A stretch of DNA of 64,000 nt, from positions 2,202,662 to 2,266,661 of the forward strand of contig OY759724.1 in NCBI GenBank assembly GCA_963662715.1, written 5' to 3'. Position 1 is the stretch's first letter; each line of letters begins with the position of its first letter. Source of the DNA: Candidatus Omnitrophota bacterium (GTDB lineage Bacteria > Omnitrophota > Gorgyraeia > Zapsychrales > JANLHA01). Positions 17,075-34,939 of the stretch are shown here, one piece after another. The position numbers and the translations under genes are program-made. The notes under the pieces were generated by a model. The model did not search any database. It was not told where the DNA came from and saw only the letters and a program-made list of their open reading frames with translations.

Positions 17075-17935
17075 ATGAACCGCTATATTGATAAATTCAT
17101 ATCCTACCTCAATATTGAAAAGAATTATTCTTCTTACACCATCACAAACTACAGTCTTGATTTAAATGAATTTATGGTCTTCGTGGACAATAAGCCCGTC
17201 GAGCAGATTCAGTATTTGCACCTGAGGAAATTCCTGGCACATCTCAGGGCCAGGCATCTTAAGTCGAGAAGTATTGCCCGAAAACTTTCTTCCATAAGAA
17301 GTTTCTTCCGCTTTTTGCAGAAAGAGGGGCTGATAAAAGAAAACCCGGCAGTGCTTCTCGTTACGCCCAAACTGGAGAAGAGTCTGCCGAAATTTCTCTC
17401 AGAACAGGAGATGGCGGAGTTAATAGAGTCTCCTTCTTTTAACAACCTTTCGGACAAGAGGGATCGGGCTATATTGGAGACGCTTTACAGTTCCGGCTTG
17501 AGGGTTTCCGAGCTCGTCGGGTTAAATACCGGGGATGTGGACTTTATCAGCAGTATCCTGCGGGTCAGGGGGAAAGGAAAAAAGGAACGATTGGTCCCTG
17601 TCGGACAGAAAGCTCTTGATGCACTTAAGCTTTATCTTGATGCCAGAAAAAAAGAGACCCGTGCCGTATTTTTAAACAAAAACCATACCCGGCTTTCGTC
17701 CCGAAGTGTCCGTAATATTATTAACAAACATATTTTGATCACAAGTTTGAGAATGAAAGTTTCTCCGCATGTGTTGCGGCATTCTTTCGCCACTCATTTA
17801 CTCGAGCGGGGAGCTGATTTAAGATCAGTGCAGGAATTGCTGGGACATGTGAACCTTTCGACAACTCAGATCTATACTCACGTGACAACGGAAAGGCTGA
17901 AGAGCGTCTATGACAGGGCTCATCCCCGTGCGTAG
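17075..17935 (+). CDS. Tyrosine site-specific recombinase XerC/XerD
   Basis: N-terminal SAM-like domain (YLNIEKNYSSYTITNYSLDL) and catalytic R...HxxR...Y (RHSFATHLLERGADLRSVQELLGH...IYTH). Start taken at ATG 17075, not the track's 16925 which overlaps topA. Confidence 0.85.
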   Translation: MNRYIDKFISYLNIEKNYSSYTITNYSLDLNEFMVFVDNKPVEQIQYLHLRKFLAHLRARHLKSRSIARKLSSIRSFFRFLQKEGLIKENPAVLLVTPKLEKSLPKFLSEQEMAELIESPSFNNLSDKRDRAILETLYSSGLRVSELVGLNTGDVDFISSILRVRGKGKKERLVPVGQKALDALKLYLDARKKETRAVFLNKNHTRLSSRSVRNIINKHILITSLRMKVSPHVLRHSFATHLLERGADLRSVQELLGHVNLSTTQIYTHVTTERLKSVYDRAHPRA

Positions 17936-17972
17936 CGCAAAACCGTTCGTAACAAGCCGTTTGATATGCCCT

Positions 17973-19282: not shown

Positions 19283-20362
19283 ATGTCGTTACGTCATTAT
19301 TATTATTTAATCGTAACAGATCAGGAAGCAGGCCTTTATGCTTTTGTTGTGAAAATATTTTTGCGTCTGGCATCCTTCTTATACGTGTTTTTTGTCCGGA
19401 TGATACTGGGCGCGTATGCTGTCAAACTGCTGCCGGTCCATGATTTGGAGAAGCCGGTTCTCAGTGTCGGAAATATCACCTGGGGTGGAGTCGGTAAAAC
19501 GCCGTTTGTGGAGTGGCTCACAGAATACTTTTTAAGCCGGAACCTTAAACCCGCTATTTTAACGCGGGGGTATATGCCGCAGCGGCGGAGATGGCAGGGC
19601 TGTCCCCCGGAAAGCGATGAAGTGCTTATGCTTCGCAGGCGGTTCCCGCAAGTTCCTGTTGTCATTGGTAAAGATCGTGTGCGAGGCGCGAAAGCCGTTT
19701 TACGGCGAACTCCTGTGGGGATGTTCATCCTGGATGACGGATTCCAGCAATGGGGGATCAGAAAAAAATTGGATATTGTGCTCATAGACGCGACCAACCC
19801 GTTTGGCAACGGATTTTTGTTGCCGCGAGGTCCGCTTCGGGAGCCTTTGTCTTCTTTAAAGAGAGCGGATATTTTTGTTATAACAAAGGCTCACCTGGAA
19901 AGAGGCCGTCTGGATTCGCTGACCAAAAAACTCAACCGGGTCAATCCGCAAGCTCTTGTCGTTGAGAGTGTCCATCAGCCCCGATCCTTGGTTTCTTTGC
20001 TCAGTCAGAGAAAAATGGATTTTTCCCTTATCGCCGGCCAGAATGTCTGTTTGGTCAGCAGCATCGGAGATCCGGCCTCCTTTGAAAGAACGGTGCAGCA
20101 ACAGGGAGCCGTTGTTAAAGAAAGATTTTATTTTATGGACCATGAGTGTTTCCTGCCTTCGGATTTGCAGCGCATAACCGAGGCTTGTCAGCGTCAGGGG
20201 ATCAAACAGGTCATTATCACAGCTAAAGATGCGCCTAAACTGCATCCCGGAGAAGACCCGTTCTTTTCGGATTTGCAGATTCTCATATTAAACATGGTCA
20301 TTCAAATTACTCGAGGAAGAGAGGCCTTTGTTGATAGAGTCAACTCTGTATTACATTGTTAA
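19283..20362 (+). CDS. lpxK: Tetraacyldisaccharide 4'-kinase
   Basis: VGNITWGGVGKTPFVEWL P-loop characteristic of LpxK. Confidence 0.85.
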   Translation: MSLRHYYYLIVTDQEAGLYAFVVKIFLRLASFLYVFFVRMILGAYAVKLLPVHDLEKPVLSVGNITWGGVGKTPFVEWLTEYFLSRNLKPAILTRGYMPQRRRWQGCPPESDEVLMLRRRFPQVPVVIGKDRVRGAKAVLRRTPVGMFILDDGFQQWGIRKKLDIVLIDATNPFGNGFLLPRGPLREPLSSLKRADIFVITKAHLERGRLDSLTKKLNRVNPQALVVESVHQPRSLVSLLSQRKMDFSLIAGQNVCLVSSIGDPASFERTVQQQGAVVKERFYFMDHECFLPSDLQRITEACQRQGIKQVIITAKDAPKLHPGEDPFFSDLQILILNMVIQITRGREAFVDRVNSVLHC

Positions 20363-22295
20363 AATTTGTGGAGCCGTTATCCGGATGCTGCCGGTTGAAT
20401 GGTCATTATTCTTGGGCCGTCTTTTGGGCTGGTTGGCTTATTTATTTGACGTAAAGCATAAAGATCAAGTCCTGCTGAATTTAAAGATTGCTTTCTCCGG
20501 GGAGAAAACGCCTCAGGAAATCCGGTCGATTGCCAAAGCTGTGTTTATGAATTTCGGGCAGCATATGATCGAACTTTTGCGGTTGCCTCGCATGAATGAG
20601 GAAACGTTTAAACGCTATGTAAAGATTGAAGGGCGGGAACATGTCGAGGAGGCTTTGCAGGAAGGCAAAGGCGTCATTCTTTTGGCCATGCATACAGGGA
20701 GCTGGGAACTGGCTAATTTGGCAAGTTCAATGCTAGGCGGGGTCTATAAAGTGATGGTCAATCCCCAGGCAAGATTTTCCCGCCTGGACGAACTGCTTAA
20801 TTCGTACCGTTCCTGCGGCGGATCCGTTGTTTTAGAAAGAGGGGCGGGGACGCGGGAACTGCTTAAGAGCCTTAAAATGAATGAAATTGTCGCTATGGTC
20901 GTGGACCAGGGAGGCAAGAGCGGGCAAAGGGTCCCCTTCTTCAACCGGGAAGCAAGCCTTTCTGTCGGGGCGGTTCGTATTGCACTGAAGTCCGATACTC
21001 CTGTTTGTTTCGCGATTATTCAAAGAGAACGCGGGCCGTATCATCGTCTCACGATTCATAAAAAACTGCATTTTATTAAAACAGGTCATACGCAGAACGA
21101 TATCCGGACGAATCTTCAGCAGATTGCCCGGATTATGGAAGGATATATCAGGTCGAATCCTCTGGAATACATGTGGTTTTACAAAATTTGGAAATATTCC
21201 AATGACTATGAAGCTATTATTCTTAATGATAAGCGGACGGGGCATCTGCGGCAATCCCAGACGGTCGCGCATTTATTGGAATCGCATTTAAAAGAACAAA
21301 GTAAGACGTGTAAAACAAAGATTGTGGATGTCACTTACCGTAACATGGCCCTGGCGAGAGTCCTGATGCTCTGCACTTTTTTTGCGACCAGCCTGCTTCG
21401 TAATTTTAGGGTCGGCCTTTTGCGTTTATGCCTGACCCCGGATTCTTTCCGGGACATCTTCTCTCTGAAGCCCGATTTTATCATCTCCTGCGGGTCAGCC
21501 GCTGCGTATGTCAATTATTTGTTAGCCAAGGAACAGTATGCTAAAAATATCGCTGTATTGAAACCGGGGAGCCTTAATTATCGGCACTATGATTTGAACA
21601 TTTTGCCCGAGCATGACCGGAAGTGGGAGAAGGTTTATGATTCTAACGTGATTTATACCAAAGGAGCTCCGAATCTTATTACGAAAAATTATTTGCAGGA
21701 GAACAGTGAGAAATTGCTGAAGCGCTTTTCGCATCTCAAAATAGGAGACAATTATAAAATTGGCGTTCTTCTGGGCGGAGATACAAAGGATTTTGTCCTG
21801 TCGGCCAGTAAGGTTAAACTGATGTTGCACCAGCTTGTTGAAGCTTCTGAGGAAATGAATGCAGATATTCTGTTCACCACTTCCCGCCGGACATCGGAAA
21901 AAGTGGAAGGTCTTATTTACCGCCATTTGAAACGTTTCCCCCGTTGTCGGCTCTTGATCCTGGCCAACCGCAATAATGTGCCTGAAGCGGTCGGAGGGAT
22001 TCTGGGGCTGTCGGATATCGTTATCGTTTCAGGGGACAGCATTTCTATGATTTCGGAAGCGGCCTGCTCGGGGAAGAAAACGATTGTTTTCCCCGTCCAG
22101 AGCCGGTTTTCTTTAAGGGGAAAGGATTTGAAACACAACCGGTTTATTGATTTGTTAACAGAACAGGGGTATATTCTCTCTTCGGATGTCAAACATATAA
22201 AACAGGCCGTATATAACCTTGTCAAAAATAAAATCCAGCTGCGGATCCTGGATGACAATTCCGTTATCAAGGTCGGATTAAAGCGAATCATATAA
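20328..22295 (+). CDS. Two-domain fusion: N-terminal lipid A late acyltransferase (LpxL/LpxM/HtrB family, ~aa 1-290) plus C-terminal ELM1/DUF1022-like GT-B domain (~aa 300-655)
   Basis: N-terminal half has GKGVILLAMHTGSWELAN and PLEYMWFYKIWK (compare E. coli LpxL HFLTLEL and EQYMWLHRRFK). C-terminal half carries motifs I recall from PF06258: PDFIISCGSAAA, HYDLNILPEHDR, VLLGGDTKDF, LFTTSRRT, VIVSGDSISMISEAACSGK. One uninterrupted 655-codon ORF. Confidence 0.7.
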   Translation: MLIESTLYYIVKICGAVIRMLPVEWSLFLGRLLGWLAYLFDVKHKDQVLLNLKIAFSGEKTPQEIRSIAKAVFMNFGQHMIELLRLPRMNEETFKRYVKIEGREHVEEALQEGKGVILLAMHTGSWELANLASSMLGGVYKVMVNPQARFSRLDELLNSYRSCGGSVVLERGAGTRELLKSLKMNEIVAMVVDQGGKSGQRVPFFNREASLSVGAVRIALKSDTPVCFAIIQRERGPYHRLTIHKKLHFIKTGHTQNDIRTNLQQIARIMEGYIRSNPLEYMWFYKIWKYSNDYEAIILNDKRTGHLRQSQTVAHLLESHLKEQSKTCKTKIVDVTYRNMALARVLMLCTFFATSLLRNFRVGLLRLCLTPDSFRDIFSLKPDFIISCGSAAAYVNYLLAKEQYAKNIAVLKPGSLNYRHYDLNILPEHDRKWEKVYDSNVIYTKGAPNLITKNYLQENSEKLLKRFSHLKIGDNYKIGVLLGGDTKDFVLSASKVKLMLHQLVEASEEMNADILFTTSRRTSEKVEGLIYRHLKRFPRCRLLILANRNNVPEAVGGILGLSDIVIVSGDSISMISEAACSGKKTIVFPVQSRFSLRGKDLKHNRFIDLLTEQGYILSSDVKHIKQAVYNLVKNKIQLRILDDNSVIKVGLKRII

Positions 22296-22323: not shown

Positions 22324-24432
22324 ATGAAATTGCGGATTTTACAGGTTTTGCCGGAATTGAATGTGGGGGGTGTGGAAACCGGAACCATTGATCTGGCCAA
22401 ATATTTAAAAGAACATGGCCATACCCCGGTTGTCGTGTCAAATGGCGGAAGCCTTGTCCATGAGCTCGAGGACATGGGCATTGTTCATTATACGTTACCC
22501 GTCCATAAGAAATCATTTCTTACAGTTTTAAAATCCATAAAATTGCTGCGGGAGATCATCCGGGAGGAAAAGATTGATGTCGTTCATGCCCGATCTCGTA
22601 TCCCCGGATGGATTGCCTTCTTTGCCTGCCGGGGGACCGAGGCCGAGTTTATAACCACCTGTCACGGCTATTATTCAACCCATCTGCTGAGCCGGGTCAT
22701 GGGGTGGGGGAAGCTCGTTATTGTCCCCAGTGAAGTCATCGGCCGGCATATGATAGAAGATTTCTCCGTCCCGGCTGATCATATCCGGTGTGTGCCCCGA
22801 AGCGTTGATCTGGGCCGGTTCAACGTGTCGCAGGAACCTCCCAAAGCCAAGACGACTTTTACGATCTCGATTGTCGGCCGTTTGACTCCGCTGAAAGGGC
22901 ATGTTTATTTTCTGAAAGCCATGGCGAAGGTTGTGCGCATTATGCCTTATGTGAAAATCTGGATTATCGGAGAGGCTCCTGCGCATAAAGAAAACTACCG
23001 GATGGAATTAGAAGCTTTGACGCGCCGTTTGGGACTGACAGATGTCGTTGAATTCCTGGGGAACCGCAAAGATGTTCCGCAGCTTTTGTCCCAGACGGAT
23101 GTGTTGGTGCTGGCGTCCACGGTCCCGGAAGCTTTTGGCCGGGTTATCATTGAGGCCCAGGCGATGAGCGTTCCTGTTGTCGCCACGAAAGTCGGCGGTG
23201 TCGTTGAAATTATCGATCATGAAAAGACCGGCCTGCTGGTTTTGCCGAAAGACCCCGAGGCGATGGCCCAGGCTGTTATCCGTTTGTTGCAGGACCGCCG
23301 CTTTGCTCAGGAAATGACAAGGCAGGCGAAGAAAAAACTGATGGGGAAATACACTCTTGAACATATGGCCAAAAAGACGCTGGCTGTTTATAAGGAACTC
23401 CTGAAATCCTTAAACATTTTGGTTATTAAACTGAGTTCCGTCGGGGATGTCATCCTGGTGACGGCTTCGCTCAAGGCGATCCGGCAAAGATTCCCTCGTG
23501 CGAAAATTGTGTGTTTGATTGGGGAAGAGTCCCGGGAAATTTTGCAGAGGTGTCCCTATATTGATGAACTGATGATTATTGATGTCAAGAATCCCAAGGG
23601 AAGACTCTGGCGTATCTTGAAATACGGAAGGAAATTGGCGCGGTATAAATTTGACAAAGTGATTGATTTTCAAAACAATCGTATGAGTCACCTCCTGTGT
23701 TTTTTGGGATTTTCCAGAGAAAGTTATGGTTACCGGAATCATAAGTGGGGGTTCTTTTTAAGCCGCCCGGTGATGCCGCCCGACCATCATATGCCGCCCG
23801 TTCCGCATCAATTTCAGATCTTGAAAGCGCTGGAGATAGATTATCATGAAGACATGCGGCTGGAATTATGGCCTTCTGAAAGGGATCATAAAAATGTTGA
23901 AGATTTATTCGAATCAGAATGGCTGGGGGGGCAACATTCTGTCGTGGGGCTTCACCTGTCGGCATCCCCACGATGGGGGACGAAGAACTGGCCCGTGGCT
24001 TATGCCGCGAAGCTTTGTGATTTATTGGCAGCAAGAAATATACGGGTTGTTATCACGGGCGCCGAGAAAGATGCCGGGTTGGGCCAGCAGCTTATGGCTT
24101 TGGCAAAGTCTAAGCCGGCAAACTTAATCGGTAAAACGAATATTTTGGAGCTGGCTGTTTTGATTTCCAAATGCAAGGTTTTTATCGCTCCTGATACGGC
24201 CCCCATGCACATCGCGGCCGCGATGAAAACCCCTTTTATCGTCTTCTTCGGCCCGACATCGGCCTTCCGCCATTTGCCCCCGGCAGACTCCTATGTCGTT
24301 TTTCAGAAAAAGTTGCCGTGCGTTCCTTGTTACAGCTCGTCTTGCCGGATTAAAACCCATGCGTGTATGACTGAAATCACCCCGGAGGAGGTTGCCGTGC
24401 AAGTCTCCCGCTTGTTGAAAGAGACATCATGA
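22324..24432 (+). CDS. Two-domain fusion: GT4 glycosyltransferase (aa ~1-365) plus GT9 ADP-heptose:LPS heptosyltransferase (aa ~370-702)
   Basis: N-terminal half has the GT4 Glycos_transf_1 core (EAFGRVIIEAQAMSVPVVATKVGG). C-terminal half starts ILVIKLSSVGDVILVTASLKAIRQRFP and ends with the GT9 motif FIAPDTAPMHIAAAMKTPFIVFFGPT. Confidence 0.75.
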   Translation: MKLRILQVLPELNVGGVETGTIDLAKYLKEHGHTPVVVSNGGSLVHELEDMGIVHYTLPVHKKSFLTVLKSIKLLREIIREEKIDVVHARSRIPGWIAFFACRGTEAEFITTCHGYYSTHLLSRVMGWGKLVIVPSEVIGRHMIEDFSVPADHIRCVPRSVDLGRFNVSQEPPKAKTTFTISIVGRLTPLKGHVYFLKAMAKVVRIMPYVKIWIIGEAPAHKENYRMELEALTRRLGLTDVVEFLGNRKDVPQLLSQTDVLVLASTVPEAFGRVIIEAQAMSVPVVATKVGGVVEIIDHEKTGLLVLPKDPEAMAQAVIRLLQDRRFAQEMTRQAKKKLMGKYTLEHMAKKTLAVYKELLKSLNILVIKLSSVGDVILVTASLKAIRQRFPRAKIVCLIGEESREILQRCPYIDELMIIDVKNPKGRLWRILKYGRKLARYKFDKVIDFQNNRMSHLLCFLGFSRESYGYRNHKWGFFLSRPVMPPDHHMPPVPHQFQILKALEIDYHEDMRLELWPSERDHKNVEDLFESEWLGGQHSVVGLHLSASPRWGTKNWPVAYAAKLCDLLAARNIRVVITGAEKDAGLGQQLMALAKSKPANLIGKTNILELAVLISKCKVFIAPDTAPMHIAAAMKTPFIVFFGPTSAFRHLPPADSYVVFQKKLPCVPCYSSSCRIKTHACMTEITPEEVAVQVSRLLKETS

Positions 24433-25529
24433 AAATCCTTTTTTTGACGACTCATTTGAACGTGGGCGGTATCACCTCCTATCTCTGGACATTAAGCCGC
24501 GGTCTGATATCATCGGGACATTCCGTCTATATCGCTTCCTCCGGGGGCAACAGGCAGGATGATTTCATGTCCTTAGGGGTTCGTCTTTATCCTGTCAATA
24601 TCCGGACAAAATCGGAACTTGACATCCGCATTTATTGGGCCACCTATCGTCTGCGTTCTTTCATCAGGGAAGAAGGTATTCAGCTCGTTCACGCTCAGAC
24701 ACGGGTGACTCAAGTGATGGGTGATTTGCTCAAGAGAATAACGGGGACGGCTTTTTGTTCGACCTGCCACGGATTTTTTAAACCCAGATGGTCAAGAAAA
24801 GTTTTCCCGTGCTGGGGCGATTCCGTTGTCGCAATTAGTCCGGCTGTCGAGGAACATCTGCGAAACGATTTTCGCATTGAACCCAGCCGGATTGTTTTGA
24901 TAAGGCATGGCCTTGATCTGGCGTCTTTCTCCTTGAAGTCCCCGGAGGAAAAACAGAAGATGAAAGCGAGATTCCATATCCAGCAAGGGCCGGTGCTGGG
25001 GATTATTGCCAGGTTGTCGGATGTCAAAGGACATTCTGTCCTGCTCGATGCCATGCCCGACGTGCTGTCCCGGTTTCCCGGAGTGCGGCTTGTCATCGTC
25101 GGGGAAGGTCCTATGGAGGCTTGCTTAAAAGAAAAGGTTTTGTCCTTGGGGATAAAAGAGCATGTGATTTTTTTCCCTGTTGTCAATCAGACTTCGGACA
25201 TGTTGTCTCTGTTGGACGTTTTCGTGCTGCCTTCTCTCCAGGAAGGACTGGGGTTGTCTGTCATGGAGGCCCAGGCTGCCGGCCTGCCTGTTGTGGTCTC
25301 CCGTGTCGGCGGTCTTCCCAGCCTTGTTCAAGACAGGGAAACTGGACGTTTGTTTGAGCCCCGGAACAGCCGGCAGCTGGCGGAGGTTCTCCTTGATGTT
25401 TTGACGCACCCTCAGGAAGCGGCTGCTATGGGGCGGCGGGCAAGGGCGTTTATTGAACGGGAATTCTCGGCTGAGAAAATGGTGCAGGAAACCGTCCTCA
25501 TGTGCCAGCGCCTCATAAAGAGTTCTTAG
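24429..25529 (+). CDS. GT4 family glycosyltransferase (paralog of the N-domain of the preceding gene)
   Basis: MKILFLTTHLNVGGITSY..., EGLGLSVMEAQAAGLPVVVSRVGG. Confidence 0.8.
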   Translation: MKILFLTTHLNVGGITSYLWTLSRGLISSGHSVYIASSGGNRQDDFMSLGVRLYPVNIRTKSELDIRIYWATYRLRSFIREEGIQLVHAQTRVTQVMGDLLKRITGTAFCSTCHGFFKPRWSRKVFPCWGDSVVAISPAVEEHLRNDFRIEPSRIVLIRHGLDLASFSLKSPEEKQKMKARFHIQQGPVLGIIARLSDVKGHSVLLDAMPDVLSRFPGVRLVIVGEGPMEACLKEKVLSLGIKEHVIFFPVVNQTSDMLSLLDVFVLPSLQEGLGLSVMEAQAAGLPVVVSRVGGLPSLVQDRETGRLFEPRNSRQLAEVLLDVLTHPQEAAAMGRRARAFIEREFSAEKMVQETVLMCQRLIKSS

Positions 25530-25562
25530 AAATTTATCGCGCAATAACAGTGATTTGTTCTG

Positions 25563-26603
25563 TTGAACAATAAGGGAATCATGAAACGAATTCTTGTTGT
25601 TAATGTCAATTGGGTCGGAGACGTGGTTTTTTCAACACCGGTTTTTAAAGCGATCAGAGCCAATTGGCCGGAGGCCTTTATTGCCTGTATGGCCGTTCCC
25701 CGGGTAAAAGAGATATTGGAAAGCTGTCCTGATATCCATGAGATTATTGAATATGATGAACGGGGCCGGCATCAGGGACTTTGGGGAAAGATCCAGCTCG
25801 TTTCAACGTTGAGACGTCATCATTTTGATGCCGCGTTCCTTCTTCATAGATCCTGGACCCGGGCCTTTCTTGTTTATTTGGCGGGCATAAGGGAACGCGT
25901 GGGTTATGACACGAAAAAGCGGGGGAAGTTCCTGACGCACAAAATTCCTCTCCCTCAGGAGTTGTCTCACCGTTCTGATTTTTACCTTAATGTGATCAAA
26001 CACTACGGCTTGAAAGTGGAAGACCGCACGTGCGAATTAAGCGTCGACAGGCAGGCCCAAAAGCAAATGGATGACATGTTGTCCCGCCATAACATCTCGC
26101 AGACGGACACTGTCATTATTGTCAACGTTGGCGGGAACTGGGATCTTAAGAAATGGCCGCTTGACCATTTCTCAGAGCTTTTATCCCGCCTGACGCAGGA
26201 ATGTCCTGTGAAAATCGTCATTCCCGGGGCAGCCAAAGATCTTGAGGTTGCCCGGGAGATCAGCCGCAAAGCCGGTGTTCAGCCTGTTGTTCTTGCGGGG
26301 CAGACGAATCTCAAGCAATTAATAGCTTTGATGAAAAGAGCCTTCCTGGTCATCTCGGCGGATTCCGGGCCTATGCACATTGCCAGTTCCGTGGGAACGA
26401 ATGGTATCGCTCTTTTTGGCCCGACCCGGCCGGAATTAACCGGTCCGAGAGGGAAGGGGGTCTTCCATGTGTTACAAAAAGATGTGGGGTGTAACCGGCA
26501 GGCCTGTTATTTCCTGCAATGCCCGGATAACGTGTGTATGCAGTCTGTGACCGTGGATGACGTTATGAGGGCTGTCCGGCCATTACTGGAAAAAGCTCAA
26601 TGA
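25563..26603 (+). CDS. GT9 heptosyltransferase (WaaC/WaaF/WaaQ family)
   Basis: ILVVNVNWVGDVVFSTPVFKAIR, and the C-terminal VISADSGPMHIASSVGTNGIALFGPT motif. Likely true start at the MKRILVV ATG 25581. Confidence 0.8.
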   Translation: MNNKGIMKRILVVNVNWVGDVVFSTPVFKAIRANWPEAFIACMAVPRVKEILESCPDIHEIIEYDERGRHQGLWGKIQLVSTLRRHHFDAAFLLHRSWTRAFLVYLAGIRERVGYDTKKRGKFLTHKIPLPQELSHRSDFYLNVIKHYGLKVEDRTCELSVDRQAQKQMDDMLSRHNISQTDTVIIVNVGGNWDLKKWPLDHFSELLSRLTQECPVKIVIPGAAKDLEVAREISRKAGVQPVVLAGQTNLKQLIALMKRAFLVISADSGPMHIASSVGTNGIALFGPTRPELTGPRGKGVFHVLQKDVGCNRQACYFLQCPDNVCMQSVTVDDVMRAVRPLLEKAQ

Positions 26604-26742
26604 AAAAGCGGCGCCCTGATGAGGGGGCGCGGATGCGGGACAGAAACAGAAAAATTTTAAGCCGATAACTTTGATGGATTTATTTTTAAATCGTATTAAA
26701 ATAGGGAAGAAGAATATTCTTTCATGATATCCTGTGGCCTGA

Positions 26743-27762
26743 TTGCTTGGGACCGTCTTGATGAAAATAAGCAAACCCAAAATTAAAAAGATTCTAGTTA
26801 TCACACTGAGCAATATCGGTGATGTGATACTGACTTTCCCGGTCATTGACATCCTCAAGAGGGATTTCCCTAAAGCCAATTTGTCGGTGGTTGTCGGGCC
26901 TAAAGCGGAGAATTTGCTGAGCCGTAACCCCTATATCGATCAGATTATCGTTTTTCAAAAGAAACAACCTTTTTTAAGAATGATCTCCTGGATTTTTTTG
27001 TTGCGCAGGAAGAATTATGACTTGGTCGTGGACTTGCGCAATACGATGATTCCTTTTCTCGTTTCGACCAAATATCTTACTTCGCCTTTTTTGAAAAGAC
27101 AGCCGCATCGGCACATGCGCCAGCAGCATCTGTTGAGATTGAAATCGCTGTACTCTTATAAGACCGTATCTCAGGAACGTTTTGCCCTGCATATACAGAC
27201 AAATACCCGTTTGGCAACCACGAATATGATATGCAATGAAATCGGTGACCGGAAGAAATACATTGTTGTCGCTCCTGGCGCGGCAGACAGCAATAAGCGG
27301 TGGAGTGAGGAAAACTTTGCCAAACTCGCTGACGAACTCATCCGGAAGCATGAAGTTCAAATAGCCTTTGTGGGCGACAAAAATGACCGTCCGGTCGCTG
27401 ACGCCATCTGCCATCTCATGTCTCACCGGGCTGTGAACTTTTGTGGCCGCATAGATTTAATCCAATTGGCCGTCCTGTTGGAAAGAAGCTGCTTGGCTAT
27501 CGTCAATGACAGTGCCCCTATGCATTTGGCTTCTTATCTTAATGTCCCGACGCTTGCCCTTTTCGGCCCAACAGATCCTCTGAAATACGGCCCTTGGTCT
27601 GAACAGAGCTGTGTCATTGAACGGAAAAAATCCTGTCCTGCTTGTCAAGGAAAGCCCGGCGTTAAGAGACACACATGCTTAAGCCAAATTAAGGTTGAAG
27701 ACGCTCTCAACGCCTTTGAGTTGACCCCTGACGGCGTCCTTTTCCGTAATTCACAGCCGTAA
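26743..27762 (+). CDS. GT9 heptosyltransferase
   Basis: ILVITLSNIGDVILTFPVIDILK, IVNDSAPMHLASYLNVPTLALFGPT. Confidence 0.8.
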   Translation: MLGTVLMKISKPKIKKILVITLSNIGDVILTFPVIDILKRDFPKANLSVVVGPKAENLLSRNPYIDQIIVFQKKQPFLRMISWIFLLRRKNYDLVVDLRNTMIPFLVSTKYLTSPFLKRQPHRHMRQQHLLRLKSLYSYKTVSQERFALHIQTNTRLATTNMICNEIGDRKKYIVVAPGAADSNKRWSEENFAKLADELIRKHEVQIAFVGDKNDRPVADAICHLMSHRAVNFCGRIDLIQLAVLLERSCLAIVNDSAPMHLASYLNVPTLALFGPTDPLKYGPWSEQSCVIERKKSCPACQGKPGVKRHTCLSQIKVEDALNAFELTPDGVLFRNSQP

Positions 27763-27774
27763 CTTAATTTTCTG

Positions 27775-28833
27775 TTGAACTCATCCCGCAAACACGCAAT
27801 GTATCGTAACATTCTTGTCATTAGAACGGATAGACTCGGAGACGTTGTTTTAACAACACCGGCCTTACGTGCCCTGAGGAAAAAATTCCCGGAGGCCCGA
27901 ATCACTCTTCTTTTAGCTCCTTTAACGAAGGAGCTTGTGGAAGGTAATCCGTATATTGACCAGATACTGATAGATGACCGTCGTTGCACCCATAAAGGAT
28001 GGCTTGGTTATATAAAACTTGTGAATCGTTTAAGACAAGAACATTTTGATCTGGTGATTAATTATCATACCAAGAAAAGGACAAACCTTTTATGCTGGTT
28101 TGCCGGTATTCCTGTCCGGATAGGATACAGAAATGATAAGTTTGGTTTTTTGTTGAATAAGCCTGTCCCTGACCGGCGCCCGGCAGGAGAAAAGCACGAA
28201 GCCCGGTATTGCCTGGATGTTTTAAAAGTTCTGGGTATTTCCGGGGAGGCCCTGGAGCTGTATGTCGCCACAAAAGATGATAATGATAAATGGGCCGAGG
28301 ATTGGTTAAAGAGCAGACAACTCCCGATTGAGGGGAAAATCGTGGCGGTTCATCCAGGGTCAAGCTGTCCCACAAAACAATGGCCGGTGGAGAGGTTTGT
28401 TGAGCTTATCCGCATTTTGAGATCGCGCTATCAGACAGAGATTGTTTTAGTGGGCGGGGCGGATGGCCGGAAGGCGGCTGCCCAAATTCAGAATGAGGTT
28501 CAGGGGCCTCTTTTCAGCTTGGTAGGGGAGACGAGTGTCGGGCAATTAACCAGTCTTTTAAAGAAATGTGCTCTTTTGATATCCAATGATTCCGGCCCGG
28601 TTCATATAGCTGCGGCTCTGGGAACGCCTGTTGTTTCTATTTTTACCAGGAATCAGCCGGGCATTAACCCCGAACGCTGGTGTCCTCTGGGACCGAAAAG
28701 CCGATATGTGGCTCCGCCTGTGGATATGAGTCTGTCCTTTGCCCAGGGAACGATTGATCATCCGGATTTCCTGTATAAAATGACCGTTAAGGACGTTTTG
28801 CTGGCAGTTGACGCTTTATATAAACTATGTTAG
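27775..28833 (+). CDS. GT9 heptosyltransferase (WaaF-like)
   Basis: ILVIRTDRLGDVVLTTPALRALRKKFP, ISNDSGPVHIAAALGTPVVSIF. Likely start at MYRNILVI 27799. Confidence 0.8.
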   Translation: MNSSRKHAMYRNILVIRTDRLGDVVLTTPALRALRKKFPEARITLLLAPLTKELVEGNPYIDQILIDDRRCTHKGWLGYIKLVNRLRQEHFDLVINYHTKKRTNLLCWFAGIPVRIGYRNDKFGFLLNKPVPDRRPAGEKHEARYCLDVLKVLGISGEALELYVATKDDNDKWAEDWLKSRQLPIEGKIVAVHPGSSCPTKQWPVERFVELIRILRSRYQTEIVLVGGADGRKAAAQIQNEVQGPLFSLVGETSVGQLTSLLKKCALLISNDSGPVHIAAALGTPVVSIFTRNQPGINPERWCPLGPKSRYVAPPVDMSLSFAQGTIDHPDFLYKMTVKDVLLAVDALYKLC

Positions 28834-28890
28834 AATCATCCTTCTTATTCTAGATCTTTTTATTAAGATAAAATATTTAAAATCAATAGG

Positions 28891-29925
28891 ATGAATCCCT
28901 ATAAAAAGCTAATAAAACAGTTTAAAAAGAAGAGAATCCTGGTTATCGGGGATGTTATCCTTGATCAGCATATTCAAGGCGTTGTGTCCAGGATATCCCC
29001 GGAGGCTCCGGTTCCGGTTGTGCTCCAAAAGCAGGACCCGACCTTTTCTCCCGGAGGTGCGGCGAATGTCGCGAACAATTTAAGAGTTCTGGGAGCAAAA
29101 GTTTTACTGGTCGGCCGGGTAGGAAAGGACCAGGAAGGGAAAATTCTGCAGACATGCTTAAAAGAAAGCGGGCTTTCAACACTGGGCGTGTTTGTGGACC
29201 GCTTTTCGCCGACCATCGTTAAAACCAGGATTATCGCCCAGCACCAGCAGGTCTTGCGGCTTGACCGGGAAAAGGTTGCCCCTTCGGAAGACAAGAAATT
29301 TTATCCCAAAGTGCTGAGTTTTTTAAAAAGAAATATTCACCGCTTTGACGCTGTCATTATCTCTGATTACGGGAAGGGGATGATCACCCGCAACCTTGTT
29401 GAGGAAAGCTGCGCCCTTGCTTTAGAAAACAATAAAATCCTGACAGTCGATCCCAAGGTGGAACATTTTGCCTATTATTCAGGAGTGACGGCCATAACCC
29501 CCAACCGCAGCGAAGCGGAAAATGCGATTCGTAATATTAAAATCACACATAACGGCAAACGAAAACTTGCTTTAACCAGCGACCGGTTAGAGACCATCGC
29601 GGATGTGGAAAAGGCCGGGAAGCAGCTGTTGAGATTTATGAATTTGTCATCTTTGTTGATTACCTTGGGAGAATACGGGTTGATGCTTTTCGAAAAAGGG
29701 AAGAAACCGGTCCGGATCCCGACCAAAGCCCAGGACGTTTTTGATGTGACCGGGGCCGGGGATACGGTGATTTCCGTTTTTACTTTGGGCCTGACGACCG
29801 GGGCGACAATGTTTCAGGCGGCGGATTTGGCCAATTATGCGGCGGGCATTGTTGTCGGGAAAATGGGCGCTGTTTCAGTGACCCCGAAGGAACTGCTAGA
29901 TGTGACGCAGCGTCCCGGGGCATAA
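28891..29925 (+). CDS. D-glycero-beta-D-manno-heptose-7-phosphate kinase (HldA / RfaE domain I only, PfkB family)
   Basis: ILVIGDVILDQHIQG...ISPEAPVPVV and the PfkB C-terminal DVTGAGDT motif. 344 aa, so no adenylyltransferase domain II. Confidence 0.8.
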   Translation: MNPYKKLIKQFKKKRILVIGDVILDQHIQGVVSRISPEAPVPVVLQKQDPTFSPGGAANVANNLRVLGAKVLLVGRVGKDQEGKILQTCLKESGLSTLGVFVDRFSPTIVKTRIIAQHQQVLRLDREKVAPSEDKKFYPKVLSFLKRNIHRFDAVIISDYGKGMITRNLVEESCALALENNKILTVDPKVEHFAYYSGVTAITPNRSEAENAIRNIKITHNGKRKLALTSDRLETIADVEKAGKQLLRFMNLSSLLITLGEYGLMLFEKGKKPVRIPTKAQDVFDVTGAGDTVISVFTLGLTTGATMFQAADLANYAAGIVVGKMGAVSVTPKELLDVTQRPGA

Positions 29926-29958
29926 GAGAGGACGTTACAGTTATATGAGGAGTGAGCC

Positions 29959-30699
29959 ATGAAGATCATCGGAGTGATTCCGGCCCGTTACGGATCGACA
30001 AGAATGCCGGCGAAAGTCCTGGCGCTGATCCAGGGGCGTCCCATGATTGAGCACGTTTACCGGCAGGCGAAAAAATGCCGGCTTTTGGATGAAGTTTTTA
30101 TTGCCTGTGATGACCAGCGGGTTATGGACGCGGCCCTTGGTTTCGGGGCCCGAGCCGTTATGACCTCCCCGGACCACGCTTCCGGGACAGACAGGATCGC
30201 CGAAGCCTCGGCGAACATTCCGGCGGAGATCATCATCAATATCCAGGGGGATGAACCTCTTGTCCATCCTGATATGATTGACGCCCTGGCCCGGGGTATA
30301 AAAGAAGATGATGGTTGTTTTATGGCCACGGTTGCCAGGCGCATCACGGATGAGGAGGATGTCGGTAATCCCAATGTTGTTAAAGTTGTTTTGAATCAAA
30401 GAGGAGACGCTTTGTATTTTTCCCGTTCGGCGATCCCGTTTAACAGGGATAATGCGGATGTGTCGCAATTGAGCTATTATAAACATTTCGGGATTTATGC
30501 TTACCGTAAATCCTTTTTGCTGTCATTAAAAGATTTTCCCCCTTCGCTCCTGGAGCAGACGGAGAAGCTGGAACAGCTTCGTGTCCTGGAAGCAGGGTAT
30601 GATATTAAAGTGCTTATCACCGAGCATGACACGATCAGCGTGGACACCAGGGAAGACCTGACCCGTGTCGAATTTTTTCTCGGCGCAAGGAAAGTATAG
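29959..30699 (+). CDS. kdsB: 3-deoxy-manno-octulosonate cytidylyltransferase (CMP-Kdo synthetase)
   Basis: IIGVIPARYGSTRMPAKVL...NIQGDEPL. Confidence 0.9.
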   Translation: MKIIGVIPARYGSTRMPAKVLALIQGRPMIEHVYRQAKKCRLLDEVFIACDDQRVMDAALGFGARAVMTSPDHASGTDRIAEASANIPAEIIINIQGDEPLVHPDMIDALARGIKEDDGCFMATVARRITDEEDVGNPNVVKVVLNQRGDALYFSRSAIPFNRDNADVSQLSYYKHFGIYAYRKSFLLSLKDFPPSLLEQTEKLEQLRVLEAGYDIKVLITEHDTISVDTREDLTRVEFFLGARKV

Positions 30700-30793
30700 C
30701 GATTGTTTGTTATCCTGACGCCGGGGGATTTTTGTTTTTTGGGGTGAATTTAAGCAGGAGGCTCCTGTCTTTTTCGGAAAGGATGCAAAGCCG

Positions 30794-31648
30794 ATGACAA
30801 TGATTAAATTGCAAGACATGAAAATCGGGGGCGGACACCCGTTCGTTCTCATCGCCGGCCCCTGTGTTATTGAGAATGAAAAGACAGTTTTCCTGATCGC
30901 CGAAACCCTGAAAGATATTACGGGCCGTTTGAAAATCCCTTTCATTTTTAAAGCGAGTTATGATAAAGCCAACCGGACGTCCATTCAGTCGTTTCGGGGC
31001 CCGGGCATTAAAAAGGGGTTGAAAATCCTTGCGAAGATTAAAAAGACACTGCAGGTCCCGGTGACGAGTGACGTTCATTGTGTCGCGGACGTTGACCAGG
31101 CGGCAGAAGTGCTGGACATCATCCAGATCCCGGCGTTCCTTTGCCGGCAGACAGATCTATTGGTCAAGGCCGCCAGGACAAAAAAGATTATTAACGTTAA
31201 AAAGGGCCAGTTTTTGGCGCCTTGGGACATGAAATCTGTTGCTGAAAAAATACAGCAGAGCGGGAATACAAGAATTATCCTGACAGACCGGGGGTGTTCG
31301 TTCGGCTACAATAATCTTGTGAGTGATTTTCGGTCTCTGGCCGTCATGCGTGGTTTGGGGTATCCGGTCTGTTTTGATGCTTCGCACAGCGTTCAGCAGC
31401 CCGGCGGTTTAGGGACGGCTTCCGGAGGCAAACGGGAGTTTATCCCTCTCTTGGCCCGTTGCGGTGCTGCCGCCGGGTGTGATGCGATATTCATGGAAGT
31501 GCATTCTCGTCCTCAAGACGCTTTGTCTGACGGTCCTAATATGCTGCCCTTAAAGGACCTGGAGGGCCTTTTCGTTGACCTTGTGGCCATTGATACGGTC
31601 GTTAAAAGGGAGCACGGGGCCCTGCGGAAATCCGGGAAAACAAAATAA
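30794..31648 (+). CDS. kdsA: 2-dehydro-3-deoxyphosphooctonate aldolase (Kdo-8-P synthase)
   Basis: FVLIAGPCVIENE...KASYDKANRTS...DVHCV, DAHP/KDO8P synthase family. Confidence 0.9.
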   Translation: MTMIKLQDMKIGGGHPFVLIAGPCVIENEKTVFLIAETLKDITGRLKIPFIFKASYDKANRTSIQSFRGPGIKKGLKILAKIKKTLQVPVTSDVHCVADVDQAAEVLDIIQIPAFLCRQTDLLVKAARTKKIINVKKGQFLAPWDMKSVAEKIQQSGNTRIILTDRGCSFGYNNLVSDFRSLAVMRGLGYPVCFDASHSVQQPGGLGTASGGKREFIPLLARCGAAAGCDAIFMEVHSRPQDALSDGPNMLPLKDLEGLFVDLVAIDTVVKREHGALRKSGKTK

Positions 31649-32607
31649 TGTCTATCAGTAAAGCCAAAGAAGTCATTGATATTGAAGCCGCTGCCGTTAA
31701 GGGGTTGAAAAAGCATCTGGATCATAATTTTACGGATGCCGTTGACTTAATGATCTCTTGTGAAGGGCGGGTGATCGTTACCGGGATGGGCAAGACAGGA
31801 ATTGTCGGCCGGAAGATTGCCGCCACCCTGTCTTCAACCGGGACTCCGAGCATTTTTATGCATAGCGCTGAGGCCGTTCATGGGGACCTGGGGCAGGTAA
31901 CAAGGTCTGATGTCCTTATGGTTATTTCCAACAGCGGAGAGACGGAAGAAACCACCCGTCTGCTTCCGCTGGTAAAGAAGATTGGAGCGAAGACCATTGC
32001 TTTGACGGCTAACCCGCATTCCAACCTGGCCAAACACAGTGATGTGATTTTAAACATCGCGGTCGAACAGGAGGGGTGTCCTCTGGGGCTGGCCCCGATG
32101 GCCTCAACGACAGCGACCCTCGTTATGGGCGATGCGTTGGCGGCCTGTCTTATTGTGCGCCGGGGATTTAAGAAAGAGGATTTCGCTTTTTATCATCCCG
32201 GCGGGGCTCTGGGGCGGAGGTTGTTGCTAAAGGTTGAAGATATCATGAGAAAGGAAGGGTTTTTCCCCCGGGTAGAAGAAGACATGTTTGTCAAGGATGT
32301 GCTTTTTGCGATTACACGCTCCAGATGCGGCTCCGCTATCGTGGTCAACCCCAAAGGGGTTTTGGTCGGCATTTTCACCGACGGGGATCTAAGGCGCCAC
32401 CTGGAAGAGGACCGTGACCTGCTGAAACGCAAGGTGGAAGAAGTTATGACGAGGAATCCGACTACGATACGTTCAGACAAGCTCGCCGTGGAAGCCTTTA
32501 CCTTGTTGCAGGACAGGAAGGTCGATGAGCTGCCGGTTGTCAACCCGAAAGGCCAGGCCGTGGGATTGCTGGATATTCAGGATTTATTAAGAGCGGGTTT
32601 GTTTTAA
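31648..32607 (+). CDS. kdsD: Arabinose-5-phosphate isomerase (SIS + tandem CBS)
   Basis: SIS domain GRVIVTGMGKTGIVGRKIAATLSSTGTPS plus C-terminal CBS pair. Confidence 0.85.
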   Translation: MSISKAKEVIDIEAAAVKGLKKHLDHNFTDAVDLMISCEGRVIVTGMGKTGIVGRKIAATLSSTGTPSIFMHSAEAVHGDLGQVTRSDVLMVISNSGETEETTRLLPLVKKIGAKTIALTANPHSNLAKHSDVILNIAVEQEGCPLGLAPMASTTATLVMGDALAACLIVRRGFKKEDFAFYHPGGALGRRLLLKVEDIMRKEGFFPRVEEDMFVKDVLFAITRSRCGSAIVVNPKGVLVGIFTDGDLRRHLEEDRDLLKRKVEEVMTRNPTTIRSDKLAVEAFTLLQDRKVDELPVVNPKGQAVGLLDIQDLLRAGLF

Positions 32608-32630
32608 CGAGAATTCCTTAAGGATAAAAA

Positions 32631-33143
32631 ATGAATGACAAAATGGAACGCATAAAAGTTTTGGCTTTGGATGTGGATGGCGTTTTGACCGACGGCCGTA
32701 TTGTTTATAATTCCCTTGGTCATGAAATTAAATCTTTCGATGTCCAGGACGGCTATGGAATTATCCTTTGGCGCCGGTTAGGGCTGAAAACCGCTATCCT
32801 TTCCGCCCGTTCGGCCAAGCCGGTTGATATCCGGGCGCAGGATTTAAAAATTGACAGGATTTATCAGAATGCTTATCCCAAGATAGACACCTACGAAACC
32901 CTGCTGGCCGATTTTGAGGTGGGCGATGAAAATGTCTGTTTTATCGGAGATGATCTGCCTGATCTGGCCGTGCTCAAACGGGCCGGGTTTTCTGTGGCCG
33001 TGGCCAATGCGAATCAGGAGATTAAGACTGTTGTTGATCATGTGACGGAGAAACCCGGCGGGCGCGGGGCTGTCCGGGAAGTTATTGAAATGATTCTTAA
33101 ACACCAGGGGCGATGGCAAGATGTCATTCATATGCACGAATAA
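32631..33143 (+). CDS. kdsC: Kdo-8-phosphate phosphatase (HAD family)
   Basis: IKVLALDVDGVLTDGRI...GDDLPDL. Confidence 0.85.
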   Translation: MNDKMERIKVLALDVDGVLTDGRIVYNSLGHEIKSFDVQDGYGIILWRRLGLKTAILSARSAKPVDIRAQDLKIDRIYQNAYPKIDTYETLLADFEVGDENVCFIGDDLPDLAVLKRAGFSVAVANANQEIKTVVDHVTEKPGGRGAVREVIEMILKHQGRWQDVIHMHE

Positions 33144-33993
33144 TTTGAAATATTGGCAGCGGATCGTCAACGTGTCGGTTGTCTCCGCGGTTCTGCTGTT
33201 GGCCGGTCCGGGTTTGGCCCAGGGGGTCGGACAGCAATTTGAGGGGTTTAACCTTCAGGGCTTCGAGGATGACGGCCGAAAGAAGTGGGATCTTCGCGGA
33301 GATACGGCCAACATTTTTGGGGAACAGATTGAGATCACGAATGTTGATGCCAATCATTACGGGGCTCAACCGATGAACCTCAAAGCCCGTACCGGAACCA
33401 TCGATAAGGCCAGCGGAGATATTCAGCTGAAAGAGAATGTTGTCATTACGTCTGAACAAGGCGCTCGGATGACTACGGAGTCATTGGATTGGTATAAAGA
33501 AAAGGATCTTATCGAAACGAGCGACCGGGTCGTGCTGTCGGACCAGCGTTTAACTGCAACAGGAACAGGGCTGCGCGCCAGCCCGGGACTCATGGTGGCC
33601 CAGATGAATGAAGATGTCACCATCAAGGTTAAACCGGCTCCGGAGAAGGATGACCAGCCGCCGGTCACGATTACCTGTGACGGGCCTCTGGAAATTGACC
33701 AGAAAAAGAATAAGGCTATTTTAAAAGATAACGTGGTCGCCGTTCAGGGGGAAAGGATCCTCAAGGCCGATGAAATCCAGGTCTATTTCGATCCCGAAAC
33801 CCAGCAGGTTAAGAAAATGATCTGCGCGGGAAATGTGGAAATTATTCAGGGAGCCAACAAGACGTATTCGCAGAGGGCCGTCTATGAGGCGGACAGCCAG
33901 AAGCTTGTTTTGACCGGAAGTCCCAAAATCACCCTGATCACATCCGGCGAAGGGAGTGTCGAGTCGTTGATGAAGGATGAAAAGTCAGATTAG
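33121..33993 (+). CDS. LptC/LptA-family protein with two tandem OstA-like beta-jellyroll regions (possible LptC-LptA fusion or double-jellyroll LptA)
   Basis: N-terminal hydrophobic segment ending GLAQG, an LptC-like region (aa ~40-150), then a clear LptA/OstA_N signature (ITCDGPLEIDQKKNKAILKDNVVAVQGERILKADEIQVY...AGNVEIIQG...AVYEADSQKLVLTGSPKI). It is the only gene between kdsC and lptB. Confidence 0.65.
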   Translation: MSFICTNNLKYWQRIVNVSVVSAVLLLAGPGLAQGVGQQFEGFNLQGFEDDGRKKWDLRGDTANIFGEQIEITNVDANHYGAQPMNLKARTGTIDKASGDIQLKENVVITSEQGARMTTESLDWYKEKDLIETSDRVVLSDQRLTATGTGLRASPGLMVAQMNEDVTIKVKPAPEKDDQPPVTITCDGPLEIDQKKNKAILKDNVVAVQGERILKADEIQVYFDPETQQVKKMICAGNVEIIQGANKTYSQRAVYEADSQKLVLTGSPKITLITSGEGSVESLMKDEKSD

Positions 33994-34077
33994 GTAAGGG
34001 TTTAGGACAAAAGGGGCTCCGGACAGGTTTTGGGGGAAATAAATACTGAAATTCCTTTTCATTTATTAAAATTGTAC

Positions 34078-34083
34078 TATAAT
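34078..34083 (+). promoter_or_regulatory. Candidate -10 hexamer (TATAAT) in the 218-bp gap upstream of lptB
   Basis: Perfect TATAAT in an AT-rich intergenic region ~130 nt upstream of lptB. I found no convincing -35 at canonical spacing. Confidence 0.2.
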
Positions 34084-34210
34084 TGTTAGATATTTTTCAG
34101 CGGTCTCTGAAAAGGATGTGTCGCAAGGCAGCGGAAAAAACGGATGGGCCTTAAGAGGGTTGAACCGTTTCAATTGTCATTCTAGCGGTTGATTCATGTG
34201 AGATAATATT

Positions 34211-34939
34211 ATGAGCTTACATTTGCTAGAAACAAAGGGGTTAGTTAAGACCTACGGTGGCCGGAGAGTTGTCGACGGGTTAAGTATTACTGTCGGCCGT
34301 TCGGAAATTGTCGGGATCCTGGGGCCGAATGGCGCGGGCAAAACAACCTCTTTTTACATGATCGTAGGTATTATTGCCCCGGACCTGGGGCAGATATTTT
34401 TTGATCAGGTGGACATAACCAAAAAACCCATTCATGACAGATGCCGGCTCGGCATGGGATATTTAGCGCAGGAAAATTCCATTTTCCGCAAACTGACCGT
34501 CCGTGAGAATATTATGTCCATTCTGGAAACTCTCGATATCAGTCCGAGAGAGAGGCGTCGCCGTCTCAATGCTTTGTTGGAGGAATTAAATATCGCGCAT
34601 TTGGCCAAAAGCAAAGCGTATACGTTGAGCGGCGGGGAACGCCGGCGGTTGGAAATCACCCGGGCCTTGGTCACGAATCCGTCTTTTCTTCTGCTGGACG
34701 AACCCTTTTCCGGTATAGATCCGATTGTTGTGGCTGAAGCTCAGGAAATCATTAAGGATTTGAAGAATCGGGGGATCGGGATTCTGCTGACGGATCATAA
34801 TGTGCGGGAAACCCTTTCCATCACCGACCGGGCTTATCTCGTGGCGGAGGGCAATGTCCTGATTTCAGGAACGACGAAGGATTTGATTAATGATCCGAAA
34901 GCGAAGCAGATATATTTGGGTGAAAAGTTCAGTATGTAG
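34211..34939 (+). CDS. lptB: LPS export ABC transporter ATP-binding protein
   Basis: Walker A GPNGAGKTT, signature LSGGERRRLEI, Walker B LLLDEP. 242 aa. Position matches the kdsC-lptC-lptA-lptB order. Confidence 0.9.
   Translation: MSLHLLETKGLVKTYGGRRVVDGLSITVGRSEIVGILGPNGAGKTTSFYMIVGIIAPDLGQIFFDQVDITKKPIHDRCRLGMGYLAQENSIFRKLTVRENIMSILETLDISPRERRRRLNALLEELNIAHLAKSKAYTLSGGERRRLEITRALVTNPSFLLLDEPFSGIDPIVVAEAQEIIKDLKNRGIGILLTDHNVRETLSITDRAYLVAEGNVLISGTTKDLINDPKAKQIYLGEKFSM

Follow-up and report, generated by a model that had tools for sequence, protein, structure and literature searches.

In a 64,000-nucleotide (nt) stretch of contig OY759724.1 from a Candidatus Omnitrophota bacterium, referred to here as the window, a single gene joins a late acyltransferase of lipid A biosynthesis, of the LpxL type, to a glycosyltransferase domain of the ELM1/GtrOC1 family, to which the KdoT protein of Acinetobacter baumannii belongs. 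The balance of the evidence favours a bifunctional enzyme, LpxL and KdoT-like, acting on Kdo2-lipid IVA, the intermediate of lipopolysaccharide (LPS) synthesis that carries two residues of 3-deoxy-D-manno-oct-2-ulosonic acid (Kdo). The C-terminal domain very likely glycosylates the inner core, with Kdo2-lipid A as its acceptor, and its sequence relationship to KdoT suggests that the donor is probably cytidine monophosphate-Kdo (CMP-Kdo). Architecture, homology, motif conservation and synteny are matters of observation, and from them we infer the donor sugar, the acceptor position and the order of the reactions. The elements of the gene are as follows, with positions in the window and amino acid (aa) numbers of the 655-codon open reading frame (ORF).

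20328..22295, + strand: fused gene, LpxL-type acyltransferase plus ELM1/KdoT-like glycosyltransferase, 655 codons and a stop in one uninterrupted frame
20346..21194, + strand: N-terminal domain (aa 7-289), late (secondary) lipid A acyltransferase of the LpxL/LpxM/HtrB family
20691..20708, + strand: HTGSWE (aa 122-127), the HX4E dyad motif
21195..21227, + strand: domain junction YSNDYEAIILN (aa 290-300), in frame, linker shorter than 10 aa
21204..22292, + strand: C-terminal domain (aa 293-655), GT-B glycosyltransferase of the ELM1/GtrOC1 (KdoT) family
21216..21260, + strand: IILNDKRTGHLRQSQ (aa 297-311), first strand and glycine loop of the acceptor-side Rossmann half
21339..21446, + strand: hydrophobic two-helix insertion of 36 aa (aa 338-373) in the N-terminal (acceptor-side) Rossmann half
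21606..21617, + strand: PEHD (aa 427-430)
21876..21893, + strand: TTSRRT (aa 517-522), containing the SRRT motif of the family
22032..22061, + strand: GDSISMISEA (aa 569-578), start of a donor-side helix in the C-terminal Rossmann half

Two Pfam profiles match the ORF without overlap and both far above their gathering scores, PF03279 (Lip_A_acyltrans) at aa 7-289 (profile positions 15-294 of 295, 163.3 bits against a cut-off of 22.3, E 9.4e-48) and PF06258 (Mito_fiss_Elm1) at aa 305-620 (156.5 bits against a cut-off of 27, E 1.1e-45). This upholds the two-domain architecture proposed by a first-pass annotation of the same DNA, and the motifs quoted there are all present: HTGSWE, EYMWFYKIWKYS at aa 280-291, LLGGDTK at aa 481-487, TTSRRT and GDSISMISEA. 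The HX4E motif is the catalytic dyad in LpxL and LpxM, and H122, G124, W126 and E127 are invariant in an alignment of 64 fused homologues, to which residue conservation refers throughout. Across the junction the sequence runs ...WFYKIWKYSNDYEAIILNDKRTGHLRQSQ..., that is EYMWFYKIWKYS-NDYEA-IILNDKRTGHLRQSQ, with neither a stop codon nor a frameshift, and the residues on its two sides, K289, Y290, D301 and G305, are all invariant. The same holds within the C-terminal domain for D301, G305, H306 and Q309 of the glycine loop, for P427 and H429 of PEHD (D430 is conserved in at least 90%), for S519, R520, R521 and T522, and for S571, S573, M574 and E577 of GDSISMISEA, while the donor-site motifs GG, SRRT and DSxSMxSEA are invariant over sequences down to ~30% identity. 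Translation starts at a TTG codon, at either 20328 or 20331, so that the gene shares ~35 nt with lpxK, which ends at 20362; a purine run, GGAAGAGAGG, lies just upstream. A public protein of 654 aa (P0001) is 100% identical to the ORF. The best NCBIfam model for the acyltransferase half, NF006270, scored 149 bits against a cut-off of 248 and the other equivalog models also fell below their cut-offs, and the half is therefore not assigned to LpxL, LpxM or LpxP or to an acyl chain or position. No NCBIfam model matched the C-terminal domain and PF04413 (Glycos_transf_N, the WaaA/GT30 profile) gave no match in the ORF at E up to 1.

What is known of the C-terminal family comes from A. baumannii. 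Kenyon et al. (2014) recognised GtrOC1, GtrOC14, GtrOC19 and GtrOC22 as predicted glycosyltransferases with the Mito_fiss_Elm1 domain in the outer-core locus for lipooligosaccharide (LOS), and GtrOC1 was proposed to make the link between inner and outer core (PMC4172580). A study by VanOtterloo et al. (2024) found that a mutant deleted for the ELM1-like gene A1S_2903 is left with Kdo2-lipid A, and that A1S_2903 and LpsB add a third Kdo (KdoIII) and N-acetylglucosaminuronic acid (GlcNAcA), also in E. coli WBB06 (PMC10936431). The biochemical function of the family was first given in December 2025, when VanOtterloo, Voss and Trent purified A1S_2903, renamed it KdoT and reported that on its own it transfers Kdo from CMP-Kdo to Kdo2-lipid IVA and hexa-acylated Kdo2-lipid A while leaving lipid IVA unmodified, and that GnaT (LpsB), an enzyme of glycosyltransferase family 4 (GT4), adds GlcNAcA after it (PMC12856342). 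In KdoT the SRRT motif was invariant; R180 within it was required, and a model placed this residue at the Kdo carboxylate of the CMP-Kdo donor; KdoT with single substitutions of candidate catalytic bases stayed functional, and a distant homologue from Rickettsia complemented delta-kdoT (PMC12856342). KdoT and GnaT were mutually dependent in vivo, for a cause that is not understood (PMC12856342). The distribution of KdoT had previously been described only for Acinetobacter and Rickettsia. A fusion is not mentioned in these three papers (PMC4172580, PMC10936431, PMC12856342), a search of the literature on Omnitrophota LPS returned nothing on an LpxL-ELM1 fusion, and a full-text search for 'DUF1022' returned no papers. 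The first-pass annotation had taken the bacterial ELM1/DUF1022 proteins to be of unknown function, generically annotated and with an undefined activity, a premise that is outdated now that KdoT is a CMP-Kdo:Kdo2-lipid IVA Kdo transferase (PMC12856342). Its 'Rosetta stone' prediction from the fusion, that such proteins act on lipid A or the inner core, is right according to the KdoT experiments, but was preceded by them.

The KdoT sequence was obtained by tblastn of the C-terminal domain against PLSDB, which retrieved fragments of the A. baumannii chromosome filed as plasmids. The records concerned (CP040041.1, CP035931.1, NZ_CP077849.1, NZ_CP064203.1 and NZ_CP104448.1) are 0.56-4.1 Mb long, carry ilvE, the outer-core locus, lpxL and lpsB, and appear to be chromosome sequence. 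The gene in question (locus L083) is the first after ilvE and encodes 296 aa annotated as 'nucleoside-diphosphate sugar epimerase'; it was identified as kdoT because D8, H13, H109, D110, R179 and R180 stand at exactly the published positions. BLASTP of the window domain against KdoT gave 29% identity over 253 aa (E 1e-17), and a profile of Omnitrophota sequences aligned to KdoT by hhalign with a probability of 99.84% (E 2.5e-30, 248 columns). In these alignments D301 and H306 are equivalent to D8 and H13, H429 and D430 to H109 and D110, and R520 and R521 to R179 and R180, so that every KdoT residue named in PMC12856342 is kept, and all but D430 are invariant in the fused homologues. IILNDKRTGHLRQSQ aligns to KdoT residues 2-16 (hhalign), PEHD to PEHD, TTSRRT to TTSRRT (S519-T522 to S178-T181) and GDSISMISEA to EDSVSMVFEA. 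The insertion of 36 aa is common to the aligned Omnitrophota ELM1 domains and stands opposite a gap in KdoT (hhalign). It is helical in the predicted models, its hydropathy peaks at 1.59 at residue 348, and it may be a contact with the membrane or with the lipid acceptor.

An AlphaFold2 model of the full-length protein, built on a 64-sequence alignment, had a mean predicted local distance difference test (pLDDT) of 88.9 and a predicted template modelling score (pTM) of 0.82, and a separate model of the C-terminal domain reached 92.8 and 0.90 and gave the same picture with Foldseek. The predicted structures confirmed a GT-B fold with two Rossmann-like halves in the C-terminal half, as the first-pass annotation had expected, and an LpxM-like fold was predicted for the N-terminal domain. 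A search of PDB sequences with the C-terminal domain found nothing meaningful, and the ELM1/KdoT family is consequently one with no solved structure.

The fusion is genuine and old. From 5.8 billion proteins searched, more than 120 full-length fused homologues of 632-670 aa, and one shorter fragment, were recovered at 49-100% identity, and all those that carry a name are Candidatus Omnitrophota, where NCBI calls the fused proteins 'ELM1/GtrOC1 family putative glycosyltransferase'. With the C-terminal domain alone HMMER found 1916 clusters at 50% identity (E<=1e-3). Among the representatives of the best 150 of these 1916 clusters, whose architectures were inspected, the LpxL domain is N-terminal in 105, made up of 81 of the 84 with at least 600 aa and 24 truncated fragments, and the named fused members of these best 150 are again all Omnitrophota, down to ~32-35% identity. 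A survey of loci, using one genome per GTDB species and the GDSISMISEA motif as the retrieving pattern, found at least 564 relatives, of which the best 80 were mapped for domains. These best 80 loci all belong to Omnitrophota or to coarsely labelled metagenome-assembled genomes of the Planctomycetes-Verrucomicrobia-Chlamydiae (PVC) group; 73 encode LpxL-ELM1, three encode LpxK-ELM1 and four are cut by a contig end. The last four had been candidates for unfused 'ELM1 only' genes, and were rejected since all of them begin at a contig end and are truncations. The junction has the same length as in the window in 68 of the 68 fusions in which it could be measured, with zero indels. The gene directly upstream is lpxK in 65 of the 80 loci (most of the remaining fusion genes begin at a contig end) and the gene directly downstream of the ELM1 domain is in 74 of the 80 a fusion of GT4 and glycosyltransferase family 9 (GT9) domains. 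An ELM1 match on a megaplasmid of Tistrella mobilis had no recognisable LPS neighbours with the queries used.

In the window too, the gene lies in an LPS operon directly downstream of waaA and lpxK, as the earlier reading of the sequence had it.

17910-19229, + strand: waaA (Pfam, NCBIfam)
19283-20362, + strand: lpxK (Pfam, NCBIfam)
22324..24432, + strand: downstream partner gene of 702 aa, GnaT/LpsB-like GT4 domain plus GT9 heptosyltransferase domain (Pfam, NCBIfam)
24429..34939, + strand: rest of the LPS operon, with a GT4 gene, three GT9 genes, a pfkB-type kinase, kdsB, kdsA, kdsD, kdsC, a candidate LptC-LptA fusion and lptB

The order further upstream is dprA, topA, xerC/D, waaA, lpxK. The products of waaA and lpxK make the substrate Kdo2-lipid IVA, and the genes for CMP-Kdo synthesis, kdsA, kdsB, kdsC and kdsD, lie inside the same operon. 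In the 702-aa partner the GT4 domain occupies aa 1-360 (22324-23403), with its EX7E motif at aa 269-277, and the GT9 domain aa ~364-698. When this GT4 domain was searched against PLSDB by tblastn, the four best of 356 matching records were A. baumannii LpsB (identity 33%, coverage 99%, E 4e-53) and the next-ranked full-length match had an E of 2e-39. Searched against the window in turn, LpsB found its best match in the same GT4 domain, which scored 197 bits where the other GT4 scored 80 bits, and as each tops the search of the other, the two are reciprocal best matches. Aligned pairwise they match over the full length (E 4e-70) and the EX7E glutamates coincide (E283 and E291 of LpsB). In A. 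baumannii, lpsB (gnaT) lies directly downstream of lpxL, the gene of the lauroyl acyltransferase (locus L085 2800-5101, CP035931.1), an adjacency that echoes the linkage of LpxL to the KdoT/GnaT pair in the window. Judged by these matches, the putative KdoT/GnaT pair is conserved as neighbouring genes.

A smaller set of relatives carries the ELM1 domain on other partners, listed here with the coordinates of the loci.

L001 1784-3940; L033, L066 and L068 at ~8.9-11.1 kb; L002 4116-6326: alternative ELM1 fusions, to LpxK or GT9

The domain is fused to LpxK in P0165, P0177, L033, L066 and L068, and to a GT9 heptosyltransferase in P0236 and L002. A tree with three full-length LpxK-fused domains placed them in a single clade, closest to LpxL fusions, and the LpxK-ELM1 locus has no lpxL at the site. 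At one locus (L086) the domain is unfused and has a GT9 gene on one side and the GT4-GT9 gene on the other. The GnaT-like/GT9 gene follows ELM1 in the LpxK-fused, GT9-fused and unfused variants alike. LpxL, LpxK and GT9 are thus three independent fusion partners, and all are enzymes of the Kdo2-lipid A stage. Divergent standalone paralogues of ELM1 were also seen in clusters of O-antigen type (L087 7001-8074 and L088 7001-8101); the first has an MsbA-like ABC transporter, Wzm/Wzt and a Wzy_C ligase as neighbours, and both have methyltransferases and GT2. These paralogues probably differ in specificity, and it follows from them that membership of the ELM1 family does not by itself fix the donor sugar.

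Taken together the evidence suggests one LPS enzyme at the cytoplasmic face that would modify a single intermediate, Kdo2-lipid IVA, in two reactions. The LpxL-type half would add a secondary acyl chain from acyl-acyl carrier protein (acyl-ACP) by means of its HX4E dyad. The KdoT-like half would act as an inverting GT-B enzyme that lengthens the Kdo disaccharide; the residue added is most likely a third Kdo, taken from CMP-Kdo, and R520 and R521 of SRRT would position the carboxylate and the phosphate of the donor. KdoT accepts both Kdo2-lipid IVA and hexa-acylated Kdo2-lipid A, which are the substrate and the product of LpxL itself. The extended molecule would then pass to the GnaT/LpsB-like GT4 domain encoded by the next gene, itself fused to a heptosyltransferase. 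As for what the fusion does, it plausibly lends the hydrophobic N-terminus of LpxL to a KdoT-like domain that has no anchor of its own and fixes a stoichiometry of 1:1 at the shared substrate, and channelling of substrate between the two domains is speculation. In a subclade this role would fall to LpxK, and in one relative to a GT9 enzyme.

A number of caveats must be applied to this interpretation. The donor sugar is extrapolated to the window domain across an identity to KdoT of only ~26-29%, and the 36-aa insertion has no counterpart in KdoT. The family includes paralogues with probable other donors or acceptors, GtrOC14, GtrOC19 and GtrOC22 in A. baumannii and those of the O-antigen-like clusters in Omnitrophota. 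The kds genes of the operon are required for WaaA in any case and are therefore unspecific evidence, and the scanned parts of the window showed no UDP-sugar 6-dehydrogenase, UDP-GlcNAc dehydrogenase included, an enzyme that a GlcNAcA donor for the GnaT-like step would require. The hydropathy of the N-terminus of the fused protein is moderate, with a peak of 1.43, which weakens the argument from anchoring, and channelling is pure conjecture.

The strongest alternative is that the sugar which the ELM1 domain adds to the Kdo region of Kdo2-lipid A is not Kdo but, for instance, a hexose, a hexosamine, a uronic acid or a heptose. In addition to the low identity, several Mito_fiss_Elm1 paralogues of A. 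baumannii belong to variable outer-core positions and the divergent Omnitrophota paralogues lie in O-antigen-type clusters. We nevertheless consider it rather unlikely for the window domain, as SRRT is invariant and its R180 is the residue required for activity and modelled on the Kdo carboxylate, GnaT, which transfers onto KdoIII, and the adjacent GT4 domain are reciprocal best matches, and even the distant Rickettsia homologue complements delta-kdoT.

A further alternative is a target in lipid A itself, for example glycosylation at the 1- or 4'-position of the disaccharide, and the fusions to LpxK, the 4'-kinase, and to LpxL do tie the domain to lipid A enzymes. Known glycosylations at these positions, by ArnT and RgtD, take place at the periplasmic face with sugar donors linked to undecaprenyl phosphate. 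Since, moreover, the characterised KdoT requires the Kdo disaccharide and does not use lipid IVA, and both the fusion to GT9 and the conserved GnaT-like neighbour indicate the inner core, this alternative is improbable. Still less probable is a role as a non-catalytic adaptor or scaffold that tethers LpxL to the core glycosyltransferases. The plant ELM1 is an adaptor that recruits dynamin, the interdependence of KdoT and GnaT in vivo in A. baumannii might be read in the same sense, and KdoT mutated in single candidate catalytic bases is still functional; purified KdoT is, however, catalytic on its own, and the invariance of the donor-site motifs down to ~30% identity argues for selection on catalysis. 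That two adjacent genes were joined by an error of assembly or sequencing has practically no chance of being correct, because the frame is continuous and the junction identical in length in the 68 measurable orthologues from independent assemblies, with more than 120 fused homologues and invariant residues on both sides of the junction.

The preferred interpretation, a bifunctional LpxL and KdoT-like enzyme, has some wider implications. Among the 80 Omnitrophota species genomes inspected, the best matches of at least 564, nearly all have a KdoT-like domain covalently joined to LpxL, with which it shares its substrate, or to LpxK or a heptosyltransferase. This gives independent comparative support to the two-step KdoT/GnaT pathway, to the presence of a Kdo3-type inner core in this uncultured phylum, and to a coupling of late acylation to inner-core extension. 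A more tentative proposal, possible but on present evidence doubtful, is that KdoT and GnaT form an ancient module that has been hard-wired across Omnitrophota as LpxL-KdoT and GnaT-heptosyltransferase fusions. If this were true, late acylation, addition of the third Kdo and the first core extensions would proceed in one coupled assembly on Kdo2-lipid IVA, and the co-dependence of KdoT and GnaT in vivo would have a possible explanation. The phylum-wide LpxL-KdoT fusion, its LpxK and GT9 variants and the conserved GnaT-GT9 neighbour appear not to have been described so far. No new functional class is opened by these observations and their main value lies in correcting the premise of an 'unknown function'. 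As no structure of the ELM1/KdoT family has been solved, naturally anchored fused constructs could also aid structural work.

Some other observations were made in the window (1-64000). The candidate LptC-LptA fusion of the LPS operon (33121-33993, + strand, 290 aa) has PF06835 at aa 40-166 and PF03968 at aa 190-278 and adjoins lptB. The longest xerC/D-type ORF begins with a GTG at position 16925 and shares 116 nt (16925-17040) with the end of topA; its true start is probably further downstream. Outside the LPS operon the window holds housekeeping genes, and two ORFs on the + strand, at 39505-40308 (267 aa) and 51609-52235 (208 aa), had no Pfam match at E<=1e-8. ORFs with family matches are all on the + strand and the GC skew is positive in each 2-kb bin, which is consistent with one long leading-strand stretch.

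Comparison with known systems places the window protein closest to KdoT. Both have the PF06258 domain and the GT-B fold, the SRRT and PEHD motifs, the D..GH loop and DSxSMxxEA are kept, KdoT acts on the product of WaaA, as the window domain would, and each is paired with a GT4 enzyme of the GnaT/LpsB type. KdoT is a free-standing peripheral protein of ~300 aa, whereas the window has a C-terminal domain of ~360 aa fused to LpxL, which is an architectural and not a catalytic difference. The two also differ in that identity is only 26-29%, that the hydrophobic insertion is found in the acceptor-side half of the window domain, and that kdoT heads the ilvE-aspS outer-core locus whereas the window domain lies in the waaA-lpxK operon. 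GnaT shares with the neighbouring GT4 domain the reciprocal best match, the retained EX7E and the genetic linkage to lpxL, but in the window the domain is fused to a GT9 heptosyltransferase domain. LpxL and LpxM (HtrB and MsbB; an LpxM structure from A. baumannii is PDB 5knk) differ from the protein described here in the glycosyltransferase domain at its C-terminus. WaaA (KdtA, GT30), whose gene lies two upstream, has in common with the C-terminal domain the GT-B fold, the pathway and, if the donor is as proposed here, the chemistry of CMP-Kdo. The most distant comparison is with ELM1 of Arabidopsis, the mitochondrial fission adaptor after which the PF06258 family was named. The plant protein works in a eukaryote as the adaptor of a dynamin-related protein, whereas the bacterial members are glycosyltransferases of the LPS core, and the locus in the window is an LPS operon with nothing related to membrane fission.

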